64,000 nt of DNA from Ostreococcus lucimarinus (lineage: Eukaryota), in NCBI GenBank assembly GCA_000092065.1, contig CP000583.1, one strand, 5' to 3'. Under the pieces are notes generated by a model, which was not told where the DNA came from, did no database searches, and saw nothing but the letters and a program-made list of their open reading frames with translations. Shown piece after piece: positions 15,316-61,231 of the stretch. Each line of letters starts with the position of its first letter. Positions within the stretch are counted from its first letter, which is position 1. Both the position numbers and the translations under genes were made by a program.

Positions 15316-15862
15316 CTACACGCGACGATGATCGCCGTCGCCGTCGTCCGGCGGTTACGCCGCCGGCGTCGATCGCGGATCGTCATCACGCCCATCTTCT
15401 TCCCCACCACCGCCCACATTCCCTTCCGTTTCGCGCGCGTTTACGAGATCACACCACCACGCACCTTCACCGGCGGTTTCCTCGCGCGAATCTCCCGCAT
15501 CACGCGCTCGCAGGGCGTCGTTCGCTCGATCGGAGTCGTCGTTTCGACACGTCGGTCGTCGTCGCGCGATGATGCCGTCGCCGTCGCGCGGTTCCGGACG
15601 CGTTTCGCGCGCGCGGGTGCGGCGCGTTCGTCTCACGACTTTCTGCTCGATTCGCGCGCGGGCGAGCGCGTTGGCGTCGTCGAGGACGTCGGGCGCGTCG
15701 TCGATTGCCGCCGACCGCCAATGCCGGAACGAAAAATTTGAATTTTGGCGGCAAAAGTGCAGAAGTGGTCAATTCGGCGGCGATCGATCGAGCGGTGCGA
15801 CGAAGGGCGAATGACGCACGCGCGACGAATGATTGACGTAGAATACAAAACGGTGAAGATGA

Positions 15863-40499: not shown

Positions 40500-41091
40500 G
40501 GCGGCGGCGGCGCGCGCGTCGAAGAAGTGGAAACCGAAACCGCTGCCGTCGACGTTCGGGGACGCGGCGTCGCCGAGAGCGCGGTCGCCGTTCGACGCGA
40601 AGACGGGGGCGACGTCGCCGTTCGAGAAGGCGCCGGGGACGTCGGCGTCGCCGTTCGAGAAGGCGACGAGCGACGGGACGGGTAAACCGGCGAGTCCGTT
40701 CGGGGCGGTGGCGACGCCGGTGACAGAGGGCGGGGCGGCGAGCGGGGACGCGACGACGACGCGCGCGAAGGCGGCGGCGAGCCCGTTCGGGGCGGCGGAG
40801 GCGCGGTCGCCGTTCGCCGCGGCGCCGGGCGCGGCGAAGAGCCCGTTCGGAGGAGCGAGCGCGGCGAAGAATCCGTTCAACGAACCGGAAGCCGCGCTGT
40901 ACGGCGCGAAGCCGGTGGCGAAGAAGCCGGCGGTGAAGGTGGAAGAGAAGACGTCGTTTTTGGAGTCTTTGCCGCGACCGACGCTCGGGCAATTCTTCAT
41001 CGTGTTCTCGTTCGTGACGATCATTTCTTTGATGCTCGGGACGTTTTGGGTCGTCGTCAACGCCGGTGGCGTGCACTTTAACGATTCTTAA
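40330..41091 (+). CDS. Hypothetical tail-anchored protein with eight or more SPF(E/G/D) repeats, an R/A/T-rich presequence and a C-terminal TM helix
   Basis: ATG at 40330 (MSTTARATASASARRATPARARG). Repeats ASPFGAV/SPFEKA/SPFDAK/SPFGGAS run through the middle. C-terminal LGQFFIVFSFVTIISLMLGTFWVVV. The (GACGCG)6 tract at 40468..40503 encodes DADADADADA. Confidence 0.5.
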
Positions 41092-41201
41092 GCCGAGCGC
41101 GACGTGCTCGCACTCATTTATCGCTCGCGTTGCTTTACATTATCCTTGTAGTCGGCAAATAGGTCACACATTCATCGTTTGTTTGTTTGTTCGTTTCTCG
41201 T

Positions 41202-42623
41202 TCATCGCGCGCTCAAGCGGCCTTCGAGGCAAAGCGCGCATACGTAGTCGAACGCATCGCTCGCCGTTTCGGGCGTTCGACGCAATCGCGGGTCGGAAAG
41301 AATGGCGGCGAGCCGCGAGCGCTGCGCCTCCAGCTGCCGAACGAAGCATTCGCGTTGGAGAGAGTCGAGCGAAAGCCGATGGAGCTCGAGCAACGCGCCT
41401 TGCAAGCGCTCGGAAGGCACGCGTCGAATCGCCGCCGTCAGTCGAAGTGTCTGCTCGGAAACCTCCCGCTCGATCGTGTTCGCTCGAAACGCGTGACGAC
41501 TCGCTTCACCGTCCAAGGCTTGTGCTTCCGCGTCGACCCATCGTAGAAAACTCAAGCCGATCGTCTGCGAAGGCGTCGTTCTCGCGCGAGACGTTCGTGG
41601 AAGATTGGAAAGACGATACGTCAACATTCGTCGCCACACGTCGTCGTCATCGTCGCCTTGGTTGCATTCTTCGTCCTCATTCGTGGTGAAGGACGAAAAG
41701 TCGCCGAGCGCGTCGTGGATGCTGGCGCGCGCGCGCGGCGGAAAAATTTCAATTTCCCTCGGCGTCCACGCGGCTTCTTCGGGCGACGACGAATCTTCGT
41801 CGACGTCGCCGGATGAATGCAGCGTACCGAGCGATGACGGCTTCAACGACGAGACCGTTCGTAACGATTTCACGCCCGAACGCTCGGGCGTCACGCACGT
41901 CCGCGTCGGCGATTCGGAATCGGAGCTCTCGCTCAACGTCGCCGGATCGGCGCTCCGTCGACGCATGGCGTTCACGCGCCTCAGTTTCGGCGTCTCACCC
42001 CCCACGACGACGGCGCGGTGCAAACAATCACCGCCATCAACGCTCGCGTCATCGATCGCGCACGCGAGCAGCAAAGCCGCGCCCGAACTTTCCGAAGACG
42101 TGCGCGCCGACGCCGCCGATCCCGACGTCGTCGAGTCCAATCGCGCCGTCGCGTGCGCGCTCGACATCCGCCCGAGCGGCACCACCTCGAGCGCCTCGCC
42201 CATCGTCATCGTCACCGACCGATACTTCACGCGCGCGTCGTCGTCCAGATACGCCAACAGTTTCCTCGTCGCCGTCTCGTCGTCTTCCCCTCCCTCGCCG
42301 CCTCCGATCTCGAACCCGTTCTCGGCGTCCGCGCGCATCTCCTTCGCCGTTCTCTCCAACCGCGCCAGCGTCCCATCCCGTCGCAGCGCCTCGACGAAAT
42401 CCTCCACCAACCCCTCGCTCGCGATTCCCTCGCGTTCGCGTTCGCTCGTCGCGCTCGTCGTCGTCGTCGACGCCCGCCCCGACGACGCGTCCTCGTCGTC
42501 GTCGCGCCCTCGTCCTCCCGTCTCTTCCTCAACTTTCACTTTCGCCTTCGTTTTCGCCCGTCGCGTCGTCTTTCGCGCGCGTCGCGCGATAAACCTTCGC
42601 CACGCGTCGCGCGCGCGCGTCAT
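41202..42623 (-). CDS. Hypothetical protein (acidic/Ser-rich middle, conserved-looking C-terminal 150 aa)
   Basis: ATG at 42623 (MTRARDAWRRF). Protein-like composition. The opposite-strand ORF 41605..42768 is S-rich junk. Family not recognised. Confidence 0.45.
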   Translation of the reverse strand: MTRARDAWRRFIARRARKTTRRAKTKAKVKVEEETGGRGRDDDEDASSGRASTTTTSATSEREREGIASEGLVEDFVEALRRDGTLARLERTAKEMRADAENGFEIGGGEGGEDDETATRKLLAYLDDDARVKYRSVTMTMGEALEVVPLGRMSSAHATARLDSTTSGSAASARTSSESSGAALLLACAIDDASVDGGDCLHRAVVVGGETPKLRRVNAMRRRSADPATLSESSDSESPTRTCVTPERSGVKSLRTVSSLKPSSLGTLHSSGDVDEDSSSPEEAAWTPREIEIFPPRARASIHDALGDFSSFTTNEDEECNQGDDDDDVWRRMLTYRLSNLPRTSRARTTPSQTIGLSFLRWVDAEAQALDGEASRHAFRANTIEREVSEQTLRLTAAIRRVPSERLQGALLELHRLSLDSLQRECFVRQLEAQRSRLAAILSDPRLRRTPETASDAFDYVCALCLEGRLSAR

Positions 42624-42660
42624 GTCGCCGCGCGCGCGTCGTCGCGCGCGTCGGTGCCGT

Positions 42661-42765
42661 CGAGTCGAGCAGTGTCGACTTTCGATCGACATCGATCGAC
42701 ATCGATCGACGTTCCGTCGATCGATCGATGGTCTCGATCGATGGTCTCGATCGATGTTACTCGAA
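42661..42765. repeat. Tandem array of TCGATCGA palindromic units ((ATCGATCGAC)x3, then (TCGATCGATGGTC)x2-3) in the bidirectional promoter between the divergent genes at 42623(-) and 42999(+)
   Basis: Visible as ttcgatcgacatcgatcgacatcgatcgacgttccgtcgatcgatcgatggtctcgatcgatggtctcgatcgatg. Confidence 0.8.
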
Positions 42766-42998
42766 TGAACACGGACCGCGTCCTCGCCCGGTCTCCGGGC
42801 GGCGCGCCGTCGCGCGCGCCGCGGAAGGACGCGCGCGGCGACGCGGCGCGCGGCGACGCGGCGCGCGGCGAACGTCGCGGGGCGACATCGCGCGCGCGGC
42901 GCGGCGCGGCGAGGCGCGAACGGACGCGAACGGACGACGCGAGAGACGCGGTGATTTCGAAACGCGCTTCGACGGAAACGGAACGGCGCGACGACGCG

Positions 42999-43577
42999 AT
43001 GGCGCGCGACCCGAGGGAGATGACGGGAGAGGTGGCGCGCGTCGTCATCGGTGGGGACGTGTTCCAGGTGAACGACGCGGTGTTGGTCAAGGCGCCGGGG
43101 GCGAACGAGCGGTACGTGGGGCGCATCGTGAGCGTGGCGGTGGAGAACGGGGCGGTGAAGGCGCGGTTGTGCTGGTATTATCGACCGCAAGAGACGCGAG
43201 GGGGACGGAAACGGTTTCACGGGGTGAAGGAGTTGTTTTCGAGCGATCACTACGATTGGGTGAGCGTGAACACGATCGATGCGAAGTGCGAGGTGTGGTC
43301 GCTGCGGGAGTATCAAGAGCTCGAGGCGGTGACGGAGTTTGATTTTTACGCTCGGTTTTTGTATCGAAGCTCGCGGGGGGAGTTCCGACCGGAGAAGGTG
43401 CCGGTGTTCTGTAAGTGCGCGGAGCCGTATAATCCCGATCGGTTCATGGTCGAGTGCGATCAGTGTAACGATTGGTTCCATCCCGAGTGCGTCAACGAGA
43501 CGAAATCCAGCGCTTCGCAGCTCGACGTTTGGCGGTGTCCCGACTGTCGATTGAGCAAGATTACGGGCGAGGTTTGA
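42999..43577 (+). CDS. BAH-PHD chromatin reader (EBS/SHL-like)
   Basis: BAH region RLCWYYRPQETRGGRKRFHGVKELFSSDHYDWVSVNTIDAKCEVW. PHD finger VFCKCAEPYNPDRFMVECDQCNDWFHPECV...WRCPDC. Collinear with plant EBS/SHL (HCRWYYRPEE...YCKCEMPYNPDDLMVQCEGCKDWYHPAC). Confidence 0.85.
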   Translation: MARDPREMTGEVARVVIGGDVFQVNDAVLVKAPGANERYVGRIVSVAVENGAVKARLCWYYRPQETRGGRKRFHGVKELFSSDHYDWVSVNTIDAKCEVWSLREYQELEAVTEFDFYARFLYRSSRGEFRPEKVPVFCKCAEPYNPDRFMVECDQCNDWFHPECVNETKSSASQLDVWRCPDCRLSKITGEV

Positions 43578-43822
43578 AACGCGAAATGAGCGCATCGAAT
43601 AATTGAATGTACAAATGAAATCGCGCGCGCGGCACCGTCGCTGAGCACGCGACGGGCGCGCGACGCGAACTTATAGCAAGACGGCGCCGTTCACCCTTAG
43701 ATAATTCGAGTAGCACGAAGCAACTCCATCGCTCGATTAGCACCCAGCACACCACCGAAAAATGGCACGTCTGAAATATTCTATCGCTATATCACAATGA
43801 ATCCGTGCGTCGATCGCCGTCA

Positions 43823-45280
43823 CTACTCGTAACCTTCGCCGATTTCGATGCCTGCGTCGATGAGTGCGTTCCCAGTCGCTTTCATTCGCGCGGCGAACTT
43901 GCACGCCGCGCGGAGCTTTGCCATGCGCAAACGCTTCAAAAGCTGCTTGGCGAGGTGCGCCACGCGAGGGTTGCGCGAGTTTTGCAAATAATCAACCACC
44001 TTAGTGCCGTCCTCGACAATCATGATGGACTGATTTCCGGGCGATAACATCAAGTTGGATAACGCGGTGATGGCGGCGGTTTCCGAGCGCACGTCCCCGG
44101 TCCGAGCGAGCTGAATGATCCATTTTAACGCCCCTTGCTTGCAAAAGCGCTCACCGTTTGGCTCGTACAGCGCTAATTCTGCGATCGCGAGCGCGGCGAA
44201 CCGCTTTACTTCCTGCTGCGGACTGCGCAACATGAAGATGCACGCCTGAATGGCGCCCGTTTTTCCGGCGAGCGCGCGCAAATCGAAATTCGACGCCAAA
44301 TTTTTCAACCCGAGCGCGGCGACTAATTGCATCTCCGCCATATCGATTCGTTCCGACGTGTTCATCGCAATCGTGCAAAACAACTGAATGGCGCGATACT
44401 TGACGAGCGTCTCGCGCAAATCCTTGTTGCGCGCCATGTGCGCGATGACGAGCGCCGCCGCCAGCTTCCGAGCCGGAATCTTATCTCTCGAGAGTTCGAA
44501 CAAAAAAGGCACGTAACCTTTTTTCTCCATCAAATTACTAAATTCGTCGTTCATCGCCAAACGCGCGATGGCGATGAGCGCCCACTTCTCCGTGTCCGTG
44601 TCGTCCGTCTTATCGACGAAGTCGAGAAAGTTTTTAATCAATTGCTCCGGCGCCTTCGCGCTCATCAGCGACGCCACCTCGGGATCATCCGCGATTCTCG
44701 CGAACGTCACCACGCAATTTCTTTTAACCCTCACCCCTAACCCCTTTTCCGTGATCAGCGCCGTCATGCTCTTATCCAGCCCCTCGTCGCTCGCTAAAAA
44801 CCGCGTATCGTCGTGATTCACCAGCGTCGTCAGCGCCCCGCTCGCCGCCACCGCGCGCTCTTTATCTTTCCCCTTGATCGTCGCCACGCACAGTTTAAAC
44901 ATCTCCTTCGTCGCCAGCGCCGTCGCGCAATCATCGTGCAGCGCCAGCGTCTGCACCAGCCCGAACGCCGCGATCTGCGCCTCTCGCTCCTTAAACTCGC
45001 ACAGCCGCGGCAGGCTCTCCCTCAGAAACGTCCCGCGCGTCCTGTGCGTCAGCTTCCCCCACGTCGTCTCCACCTCTCCCGCGATCGCCGCTCGAAGCGC
45101 GCGCATCTGTCGCAGCAAGCGTCGCATCTTCCCCGTCGATCGCTTCCATCCCGCGATGTCGTCCATCATCGCGTGCACCTTGGCGTCCGTCATCGCTTCG
45201 TCCACCGTCTCGCGCGCGCACGTCACGAACGCGATGAACGCGCGCACCGCGCGCACCATGCGACGCCGCGCCACGCGCAT
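43823..45280 (-). CDS. Armadillo/HEAT-type helical-repeat protein
   Basis: 485-aa ORF with recurring 40-aa helical units of the form L..L...L..NL (ALAIAELALYEPNGERFCKQGALKWIIQLAR...AAITALSNLMLSPGNQSIMI), typical of ARM repeats. Confidence 0.6.
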   Translation of the reverse strand: MRVARRRMVRAVRAFIAFVTCARETVDEAMTDAKVHAMMDDIAGWKRSTGKMRRLLRQMRALRAAIAGEVETTWGKLTHRTRGTFLRESLPRLCEFKEREAQIAAFGLVQTLALHDDCATALATKEMFKLCVATIKGKDKERAVAASGALTTLVNHDDTRFLASDEGLDKSMTALITEKGLGVRVKRNCVVTFARIADDPEVASLMSAKAPEQLIKNFLDFVDKTDDTDTEKWALIAIARLAMNDEFSNLMEKKGYVPFLFELSRDKIPARKLAAALVIAHMARNKDLRETLVKYRAIQLFCTIAMNTSERIDMAEMQLVAALGLKNLASNFDLRALAGKTGAIQACIFMLRSPQQEVKRFAALAIAELALYEPNGERFCKQGALKWIIQLARTGDVRSETAAITALSNLMLSPGNQSIMIVEDGTKVVDYLQNSRNPRVAHLAKQLLKRLRMAKLRAACKFAARMKATGNALIDAGIEIGEGYE

Positions 45281-59317: not shown

Positions 59318-61231
59318 ATGGCAGGCGGTGTTGCGGTGGCGTCGGGAGAGATCCGGCACGGCGATAGGGTCTTCAGTGGGAACTCTGGCCCCGCGCAGCG
59401 CGAACAACCCATAAACAAAGAACTCATCGCGCACTTCAAAAGCAAGGGAGACAGTGTGTCCTGGGGCATCGCTGCAAGCATAGAGAACTACGAGGAGGAT
59501 ACGAAGAGGCCAGTGTTGTCGGGCGCATGCATCGCGTCGCTCTACGACCAAGAGACCGAGCGCGAGTTGGCAGAGGAGGTGGAGAACAGAATTGAGCGGG
59601 TGCTAAGCGACGACGCAGCCTTGTTGAAAATACGTCGATATTTGAAGACCTTCCACGCGGACGAGCGCGAATGGGATGTGAGAACGTGTGCAGCGGCGGC
59701 TCGAGGGGGCAACTTGGAGTGTTTGAAATATCTGCACGAGCACGGGTGCGCGTGGGATAAGAGTGCGTGTGAAGCGGCGGCTCAAGGTGACCACTTGGAG
59801 TGTTTGAAATATCTGCATGCGAACGGGTGCACATGCGATGAGAGTGCGTGTTTAGCAGCGGCTGAAGGTGGTCACTTGGAGTGTTTGAAATATCTGCACG
59901 AGCACGGGTACCCATGGAGTGAGTGGGTGAGTTTAGCAGCGGCCGAAGGCGGTCACTTGGAGTGTTTGAAATATCTGCACGAGCACGGGTGCGTATGGAA
60001 TAAGAAAACGTGTCGAGCAGCGGCTCGAGGTGGCGACTTGGAGTGTTTGAAATATCTGCACGAGCACGGGTGCGCGTGGGATGAGAGTGCGTGTGAAGCG
60101 GCGGCTCGATGTGGTCATTTGGAGTGTTTGAAATATCTGCATGAGCACGGGTGCCCGTGCGATGAGAGTGCGTGTGAAGCGGCGGCTAGCTGTGGCGACT
60201 TGGAGTTTTTGAAAGACCTGCACGAGCACGGGTGCCCATGGGATGAGAGTGCGTGTGAAGCGGCGGCTCTAGGTGGTCACTTGGAGTGTTTGAAATATCT
60301 GCACGAGCACGGGTGCGTATGGAATAAGAAAACGTGTCGAGCAGCGGCTCGAGGTGGCGACTTGGAGTGTTTGAAATATCTGCACGAGCACGGGTGCGCG
60401 TGGGATAAGAGTGCGTGTTCTGCAGCGGCTGGACGCGGTCACTTGGAGTGTTTGAAATATCTGCACGAGCACGGGTACCCATGGAGTGAGTGGGTGAGTT
60501 TAGCAGCGGCCGAAGGCGGTCACTTGGAGTGTTTGAAATATCTGCACGAGCACGGGTGCGTATGGAATAAGAAAACGTGTCGAGCAGCGGCTCGAGGTGG
60601 CGACTTGGAGTGTTTGAAATATCTGCACGAGCACGGGTGCCCGTGCGATGAGAGTGCGTGTGAAGCGGCGGCTAGCTGTGGCGACTTGGAGTTTTTGAAA
60701 GACCTGCACGAGCACGGGTGCCCATGGGATGAGAGTGCGTGTGAAGCGGCGGCTCTAGGTGGTCACTTGGAGTGTTTGAAATATCTGCACGAGCACGGGT
60801 GCGTATGGAATAAGAAAACGTGTCGAGCAGCGGCTCGAGGTGGCGACTTGGAGTGTTTGAAATATCTGCACGAGCACGGGTGCCCGTGCGATGAGAGTGC
60901 GTGTGAAGCGGCGGCTAGCTGTGGCGACTTGGAGTGTTTGAAATATCTGCGCGAGCACGGGTGCCCGTGCGATGAGAGTGCGTGTGAAGCGGCGGCTCTA
61001 GGTGGTCACTTGGAGTTTTTGAAAGACCTGCATGAGCACGGGTGCGCATGGGATAAGAGTGCGTGTTCTGCAGCGGCTCGAGGTGGTCACTCGGAGTGCT
61101 TGAAGTACTTGCACACGCACGGGTGCCCCGGGAATAAGCGTGCGTCTGAAGCGGCGGCTGGAGGTGACGTCATGGAGTGTTTGAGTTTGAAGTACTTGCA
61201 TAGATCGCTCAAACGAAAGATTTACAGGTAG
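59318..61231 (+). CDS. Ankyrin-like repeat protein: about 18 tandem 27-aa units of HLECLKYLHEHGC(P/A)WD(E/K)SAC.AAA.GG
   Basis: ATG at 59318. The first 58 codons of the ORF-track entry overlap the CPT gene and were excluded. The repeat shares the AA..GHLE.LK.L...G core with ankyrin repeats but is 27 aa rather than 33 aa. Confidence 0.75.
   Translation: MAGGVAVASGEIRHGDRVFSGNSGPAQREQPINKELIAHFKSKGDSVSWGIAASIENYEEDTKRPVLSGACIASLYDQETERELAEEVENRIERVLSDDAALLKIRRYLKTFHADEREWDVRTCAAAARGGNLECLKYLHEHGCAWDKSACEAAAQGDHLECLKYLHANGCTCDESACLAAAEGGHLECLKYLHEHGYPWSEWVSLAAAEGGHLECLKYLHEHGCVWNKKTCRAAARGGDLECLKYLHEHGCAWDESACEAAARCGHLECLKYLHEHGCPCDESACEAAASCGDLEFLKDLHEHGCPWDESACEAAALGGHLECLKYLHEHGCVWNKKTCRAAARGGDLECLKYLHEHGCAWDKSACSAAAGRGHLECLKYLHEHGYPWSEWVSLAAAEGGHLECLKYLHEHGCVWNKKTCRAAARGGDLECLKYLHEHGCPCDESACEAAASCGDLEFLKDLHEHGCPWDESACEAAALGGHLECLKYLHEHGCVWNKKTCRAAARGGDLECLKYLHEHGCPCDESACEAAASCGDLECLKYLREHGCPCDESACEAAALGGHLEFLKDLHEHGCAWDKSACSAAARGGHSECLKYLHTHGCPGNKRASEAAAGGDVMECLSLKYLHRSLKRKIYR
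59690..61150. repeat. Tandem array of near-identical 81-bp coding repeats with duplicated higher-order blocks of about 250-490 bp
   Basis: cacttggagtgtttgaaatatctgcacgagcacgggtgc recurs every 81 bp. The block 59880..60080 repeats at 60470..60660. The block 60148..60400 repeats at 60640..60890, almost base for base. Confidence 0.85.

Follow-up and report, generated by a model that had tools for sequence, protein, structure and literature searches.

The head-to-head gap between two genes of Ostreococcus lucimarinus contains seven copies of the palindromic octamer TCGATCGA, organized in two adjacent perfect tandem sub-arrays, and we consider this array probably to be a lineage-specific compound mini-satellite sitting in repeat-prone promoter DNA. 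The O. lucimarinus genome was examined directly over a stretch of 64 kb, hereafter called the window, to which all positions refer unless a contig is named.

The array and the head-to-head gap that contains it

The features of the locus are as follows.

41202-42623, minus strand, ATG at 42623: left-hand gene, 473 aa (codon gene finder and exact protein look-up)
42624-42998: divergent intergenic region and putative bidirectional promoter, 375 bp, GC 0.72
42661-42681: left flank of the array, TCGAGTCGAGCAGTGTCGACTT, which contains TCGA and is not a repeat unit
42682-42710: sub-array A, (TCGATCGACA) x2.9, period 10, 100% matches, score 58 (TRF)
42682, 42692 and 42702: the three TCGATCGA cores of sub-array A (motif count)
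42711-42716: central spacer GTTCCG, predicted loop of an array-wide imperfect hairpin (DNA fold)
42717-42759: sub-array B, a lead-in TCGA followed by (TCGATCGATGGTC) x2.8, perfect, with a degenerate final unit, TCGATCGATGTTA
42717, 42721, 42734 and 42747: the four TCGATCGA cores of sub-array B (motif count)
42721-42756: repeat of sub-array B as delimited by TRF, period 13, 100% matches, score 72
42831-42917: second tandem repeat of the gap, (GCGCGCGGCGACGCG) x5-6, CG-rich (TRF: period 15, 5.3-6 copies, 78% matches)
42999-43577, plus strand, ATG at 42999: right-hand gene, 192 aa, BAH and PHD domains (Pfam)

Genes were called by a home-made codon log-odds finder trained on the window, which gives imprecise 5′ ends in CG-rich DNA; it recovered the annotated 473-aa gene exactly. 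The product of this left-hand gene is identical to XP_001417090.1, a "predicted protein" of Ostreococcus lucimarinus CCE9901, in which a Pfam search detected no domain. In the right-hand product Pfam identified both a BAH (E=3e-17) and a PHD (E=1e-9) domain, bearing out the statement of a preliminary description of this DNA that a BAH-PHD gene adjoins the array. The protein shares 71% identity with a 194-aa homologue from O. tauri and 41% with the "chromatin remodeling protein EBS" of pea (Lathyrus oleraceus), and by its sequence it is a predicted chromatin reader of the EBS/SHL type. The divergent ATGs at 42623 and 42999, also given in that description, were both verified as starts. A 5-bp indel that segregates at 42951 in environmental contigs shows that the extension of the right-hand ORF upstream of 42999 (42741-42998) is non-coding. 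Together with the verified starts, this shows the gap to be a genuine head-to-head intergenic region; it is the divergent gene arrangement that suggests its action as a bidirectional promoter.

The protein collection contains no exact match to the 192-aa BAH-PHD product, and all four of the neighboring genes that were looked up are on record there as exact sequences. At this gene, metagenome gene callers proposed ORFs of 278-284 aa that extend back into the repeat array. Since CG-rich gaps lack stop codons, annotation of the longest ORF from its first ATG runs through the promoter. The BAH-PHD gene may be missing from the reference annotation or be modelled otherwise. An RNA gene was considered and rejected, as an Rfam covariance-model search of 41000-44500 yielded no match at E<=0.1. 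The (GCGCGCGGCGACGCG) repeat that lies between the array and the BAH-PHD gene is of the usual kind in divergent gaps of the O. lucimarinus genome.

Along the stretch, the array and its borders read GTCGACTT-TCGATCGACA-TCGATCGACA-TCGATCGAC-GTTCCG-TCGA-TCGATCGATGGTC-TCGATCGATGGTC-TCGATCGATGTTA-CTCGAATG. The palindrome-based tandem array that had been reported between the divergent ATGs is thus confirmed, in the form of two 100% perfect TRF arrays with seven TCGATCGA cores, and six of the cores, spaced 10, 10, 15, 17 and 13 bp apart, were assigned to a single family by a gap-free repeat finder. Its limits and composition need some correction: it had been drawn from 42661 to 42765, of which the core at 42682-42756 (75 bp) stands and 42661-42681 and 42757-42765 prove to be TCGA-containing flanks, and of three supposed ATCGATCGAC copies two are exact while the third has a T at its first base.

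The window contains 11 TCGATCGA sites, seven of them within 42682-42754. Dinucleotide shuffles gave a mean of 7.75 sites for the whole window and ~0.009 per 73-bp span, so that seven sites in 73 bp cannot be attributed to chance and represent duplication products. Nowhere else in the window do TCGATCGA, CGATCG or ATCGAT form a cluster. Outside the array, TCGATCGA is found at four sites, three coding and one intergenic, which is below the shuffle expectation. This other intergenic occurrence (15781-15791, GCGATCGATCGAGC, with the site at 15784) is located in a 547-bp gap of tandem orientation between two minus-strand genes, ~80 bp past the stop codon of one and ~470 bp upstream of the ATG of the other.

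Variation of the array within and between species

Within the species we compared 18 environmental contigs, in which the 375-bp gap occurs as 13 haplotypes. The seven cores were identical in all 18 contigs and no change in copy number was seen: the array is fixed in O. lucimarinus, and the copy-number polymorphism by which mini- and microsatellites are recognized is absent at this locus in these contigs. The two sub-arrays, which together span 72 bp, contain none of the 14 SNP positions, against an expectation of ~2.7. This depletion is borderline (one-sided p=0.05; Fisher p=0.08), and we counted it neither for constraint nor for neutrality. The only SNP within the array span is a T>G change at 42713, in the central spacer; another affects the left flank at 42668. 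Elsewhere in the gap, the 5-bp insertion at 42951 is a TGATT duplication carried by L001/L002, and positions 42781-42783 carry a 3-bp multi-nucleotide substitution haplotype in environmental O. lucimarinus. The invariance of the array could reflect constraint, equally low slippage at three copies, or homogenisation. As low mutability is expected of units present in three copies, it does not exclude membership in the mini- and microsatellite class.

Orthologous loci were available from O. tauri (L003) and from three more Ostreococcus-like species (L004/5, L008-10 and L011). The BAH-PHD orthologues of these four species are 66-75% identical to the protein encoded in the window, and gene order is kept, with ARM-repeat and VPS13 genes alongside; in L003 the called neighbors differ. 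In none of the four does the corresponding gap, in front of the BAH-PHD orthologue, contain the array, which is therefore specific to O. lucimarinus. Absence at orthologous sites represents the rapid turnover typical of mini- and microsatellites, and the conservation in orthologous promoters that would mark a cluster of binding sites was not found. L009 alone contains two copies of CGATCGAA, as CGATCGAACGATCGAA; they do not exceed the background density of CGATCG in divergent gaps (5.7 per kb). The preliminary description had pointed to the BAH-PHD gene beside the array, and a link between the two is not supported: the array is closer to the other gene (59 bp from the left-hand ATG, compared with 243 bp from that of the BAH-PHD gene), and the BAH-PHD orthologues do without it. 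Its proximity to a chromatin-reader gene is a coincidence.

In one of the sister Ostreococcus-like species, an analogous but longer compound array, (TCGA)n / (TTCATTTCGA)n / CGATCGCG, precedes a gene start by ~30-150 bp (L008:170-305, L009:165-295 and L010:115-240), with (GACC)n and (GTCG)n microsatellites adjoining it. Copy number and arrangement differ in each of the three contigs sampled; such differences in copy number are microsatellite behavior.

Tandem repeats and gene orientation

TRF returned 255 rows for the 64-kb window. The density of repeat arrays was 5.1 per kb in divergent gaps, 1.6 in tandem gaps, 0.45 in convergent gaps and 0.86 in coding DNA, and the corresponding repeat coverage was 31%, 6%, 2% and 5%. 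Gene orientation alternates strongly along the window, whose 36 predicted genes are separated by 14 divergent, 15 convergent and 6 tandem gaps. The largest tandem repeat of the window (59671-61184; 81-bp unit x18.7, TRF score 1813, 81% matches) is coding: it lies inside the ORF at 59318-61231 on the plus strand and specifies ankyrin repeats with a period of 27 residues (Pfam Ank_4, E=1e-59).

A metagenome scan for three cores 2-5 bp apart identified at least 120 loci. About a quarter of the matches listed were prasinophyte-like, i.e., had a GC content of ~0.6 and a CpG observed/expected ratio of at least 1.4, an assignment based on composition and codon-model fit and not on a named match. A taxonomic check of the array-rich contig L028 returned only chlorophytes among named matches, at ~50% identity, and unnamed metagenome sequences at up to 97%. 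The gap around each array was classified with the gene finder trained on the window. After deduplication, the TCGATCGA/(TCGA)n arrays of the prasinophyte-like contigs among the matches listed were found in ~19 divergent, 2 tandem and 0 convergent gaps (p=6e-7 against a length-weighted baseline). Where a single neighbor was visible, its 5′ end faced the array in every case among the matches listed, and the median distance from the array to a 5′ ATG was 143 bp at 25 other loci.

Other tandem repeats are distributed similarly. In unselected gaps of 27 prasinophyte-like contigs they numbered 58 in divergent, 19 in tandem and 7 in convergent gaps, and the distribution of TCGATCGA arrays is not significantly different (Fisher p=0.09; binomial p=0.04). 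Because a 5′ bias is thus common to all tandem repeats, most of the promoter signal of the TCGATCGA arrays is removed. The preliminary description had opposed its reading to a common dispersed microsatellite with no promoter enrichment. The first half of that picture applies, since the motif is of a common dispersed type in the lineage; the second does not, as promoter enrichment is real, though not motif-specific.

At the level of the motif, observed/expected ratios in unselected divergent gaps of the pooled prasinophyte-like contigs were 4.4 for TCGATCGA and 3.9 for ATCGAT, and the control palindromes GTCGAC, ACGCGT and TCGCGA showed no excess in such gaps. Of the unselected gaps, 4 of the 37 divergent ones and 6 of the 52 in tandem orientation had at least one TCGATCGA, with most counts coming from one region of L099. 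The genes beside such arrays code for a kinase, GPI2, UCH, a JmjC protein, MDH, a PLP-dependent enzyme (Pfam PALP) and a Glu/Gln-tRNA synthetase; array-flanking genes elsewhere are without a common function. On two related chlorophyte contigs, a JmjC (JMJD6-like) gene is preceded by a divergent gap (L028:7028-7869 and L099:10872-11945), and the two gaps are orthologous. They are full of ATCGAT/CGATCG-based repeats, with 20 and 38 ATCGAT copies, respectively. Coding identity between the two contigs is 88%, and the gaps align over the final 35 bp only.

The array pattern was also looked for in IMG/VR, where 8 contigs were retrieved, mostly with plain (TCGA)8. One viral contig (L150:3307-3344; IMGVR_UViG_3300037522_000055, GC 0.60) carries (TCGATCGACA)x4, the unit of sub-array A, and the same TCGATCGACA unit is present three times in reverse orientation in a prasinophyte-like contig (L030:4781-4808); the repeats of L150 and L030 probably have independent origins, and nothing connected the L150 repeat with the host promoter. 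Four IMG/VR contigs, L147, L149, L151 and L152 (GC 0.47, CpG observed/expected 1.36) share a single locus, viral or from a low-GC prasinophyte host, in which a (TCGA)n run lies beside (GGGT)n/(CCCA)n repeats.

Origin and possible roles of the array

We propose that a TCGATCGA-containing seed in the head-to-head gap was duplicated by replication slippage or unequal exchange, which would have generated three 10-bp units and, beside them, three 13-bp units. Divergent 5′ intergenic DNA, about one-third of which consists of tandem repeats in this compact genome, tolerates changes in length. Any effect on the flanking genes would most likely be passive, the array forming a ~100-bp GC-poorer, ApT-containing and cruciform-capable spacer that may keep apart two extremely CpG-rich leader regions. 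The copies are arranged head to tail with high identity (2.9 x 10 bp and 2.8 x 13 bp, 100%), as in mini- and microsatellites, and the perfection of both sub-arrays is a signature of recent duplication. Unstable tandem repeats whose copy number varies between strains were reportedly described in yeast promoters by Vinces et al. in Science in 2009. The resemblance lies in short tandem repeats in promoter DNA and, for the arrays of L008-L010, in their variable copy number, and by analogy copy number may passively tune expression; the difference is that the O. lucimarinus array did not vary in copy number in 18 contigs.

The mini-satellite interpretation is supported by the published position of O. 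lucimarinus as an extreme outlier in which CpG-containing repeat types are dominant (Mayer et al. 2010, BMC Genomics 11:277; PMC3152781) and in which repeats with units of >6 bp exceed short ones (PMC3152781). The array belongs to the same genome, contains CpG and has units of 10 and 13 bp. Mayer et al., however, stress CG, ACG and CCG units, and the array is GC-poorer than the typical repeat reported there; that paper does not mention TCGA-type or palindromic units, and its main text and text supplements gave no match for ATCG (PMC3152781). Some observations count against a mini-satellite. The unit is GC-poor and palindromic, which is atypical, and the neighboring repeats are mostly CG-rich. 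Invariance in 13 haplotypes could mean constraint. TCGATCGA and ATCGAT are in excess in divergent gaps, where the control palindromes are not, and L028 and L099 keep ATCGAT copies despite gaps that cannot be aligned. Finally, with a period of 10 bp, the sites of sub-array A would all lie on the same side of the helix.

Some of these features would suit a homotypic array in which the palindromic TCGATCGA cores bind a putative dimeric or GATA-type zinc-finger factor, a reading that we regard as unlikely; we are just as doubtful that seven sites in ~75 bp, of which three are spaced one helical turn apart, could serve as an orientation-independent element for both genes. The single TCGATCGA sites speak against binding, since they are not enriched in the window and are present in few of the unselected gaps (4 of 37 divergent, 6 of 52 in tandem orientation), even if the palindromic core and the exact 10-bp phasing of sub-array A are what a dimer would call for. 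Sub-array B, moreover, has a period of 13 bp and is thus not helically phased. The location of the array, with divergent ATGs at distances of 59 bp and 243 bp, and the median of 143 bp that separates arrays from a 5′ ATG at 25 other loci are consistent with regulatory sites, but a 5′ location bias is common to all repeat types and the flanking genes are functionally heterogeneous. Cores that are invariant in 13 haplotypes with 14 SNPs in the flanks (p about 0.05), and an excess of ATCGAT and TCGATCGA in unselected divergent gaps that control palindromes do not share, likewise argue for binding sites, whereas the four orthologous promoters show no conservation. Absence from those promoters, the lack of enrichment of single sites, the unrelated functions of flanking genes and the generality of the 5′ bias leave without support the site array for a dimeric transcription factor that had been put forward in the preliminary description, and the array is probably not a purpose-built binding-site array.

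Among the literature matches listed for the TCGATCGA octamer were primers, CpG oligonucleotides and unrelated sequences and no algal cis-element, and a search for Ostreococcus promoter motifs or bidirectional promoters found nothing relevant. In Drosophila, the DRE (TATCGATA) is bound by DREF, and clusters of the BEAF-32 motif CGATA lie between head-to-head genes. Both DREF and BEAF-32 belong to the BED-finger proteins of insects, and the DRE is a core-promoter motif present in single copy instead of in perfect tandem arrays. The O. lucimarinus array shares with this system the clustering of CGAT-containing, partly palindromic motifs and a location between close head-to-head genes; neither CGATA nor TATCGATA is present on either strand of 42661-42765. 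The hexamer GATCGA, which occurs 14 times in the array when its reverse complement is included, has a precedent in the light-response elements of Neurospora, where it is recognized by the White Collar Complex, which dimerises and is of the GATA-type zinc-finger class (PMC3991626). That system is fungal, and the array resembles it at the 6-mer level only.

Methylation offers another possible role. The array could be an epigenetic landing pad, with the one concentration of ApT/GATC (and symmetric TCGA) sites in a gap that is saturated with CpG and elsewhere free of ApT, and would act as a putative 6mA substrate or as a CpG-methylation-sensitive element, which we consider very unlikely. It does hold 12 of the 15 ApT and all 7 GATC of the 375-bp gap, and ApT 6mA marks the first linkers just downstream of transcription starts in Ostreococcus and Micromonas (PMC12695648). 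Most promoters of the window have no such ApT cluster, however, so that it is not a general requirement. The CpG version, also raised in the preliminary description, is contradicted by density: 42661-42765 has 18 CpG per 100 bp, compared with 35 in the left and 30 in the right flank, so that CpG is sparser in the array than anywhere else in the gap and the raised local density of a CpG-island-like element is lacking. Furthermore, prasinophyte 5mCG is reported as a mark of gene-body linkers and not of the surroundings of the transcription start (PMC12695648).

Alternatively, the self-complementary units might extrude a cruciform or disfavor nucleosomes and so keep the shared promoter open, a reading that seems to us rather improbable. 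As single-stranded DNA, 42661-42765 is predicted to fold into one long imperfect hairpin (MFE -33.4 kcal/mol, z-score -3.8), which none of 200 shuffles equals, with the complementary arms and short loop of a cruciform; the repeat finder delimits 19-nt arms of 84% complementarity, and the array, at GC 0.52, forms a GC-poor island between flanks of GC 0.8-0.9. Yet hairpin potential is automatic for any array of palindromic units and hence is not independent evidence of function, and the orthologous promoters manage without the array. The palindromic unit also explains the approximate dyad symmetry of the whole 100-bp block, the one feature in favor of a mobile-element remnant or terminal repeat (e.g., a MITE) inserted into the gap. 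Such an origin is extremely unlikely: target-site duplications and non-repeat internal sequence are lacking, and it was rejected because no other copy of the block was found in the window or among the metagenome matches listed, of which only L101, the window's own locus, matches it.

Broader in scope is the possibility that TCGATCGA/ATCGAT arrays are not neutral repeats but a functional, fast-evolving class of bidirectional-promoter elements in prasinophytes, which would supply clustered symmetric ApT/GATC sites for TSS-proximal 6mA or for a lineage-specific palindrome-binding factor, in CpG-saturated promoters that have no other ApT, and would be maintained by turnover instead of positional conservation. 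This would fit the L028/L099 promoter pair and the invariance of the array across 13 haplotypes, and we judge it quite unlikely. Taken overall, a functional reading of the array is unlikely or even markedly so, and we infer that the mini-satellite arose by slippage and has no dedicated function. Nothing found in this analysis requires one.

By itself the array matters little: it is an unannotated promoter tandem repeat of an ordinary sort, and the abundance of CpG-containing repeats in this genome was known before. As a by-product, the analysis reveals that in these ultra-compact algal genomes tandem repeats, including the recurrent (TCGA)n/TCGATCGA type, are almost confined to head-to-head gaps. 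If such arrays were maintained as ApT/GATC platforms or as binding sites, they would provide a sequence handle on the organization of bidirectional promoters in the smallest free-living eukaryotes.
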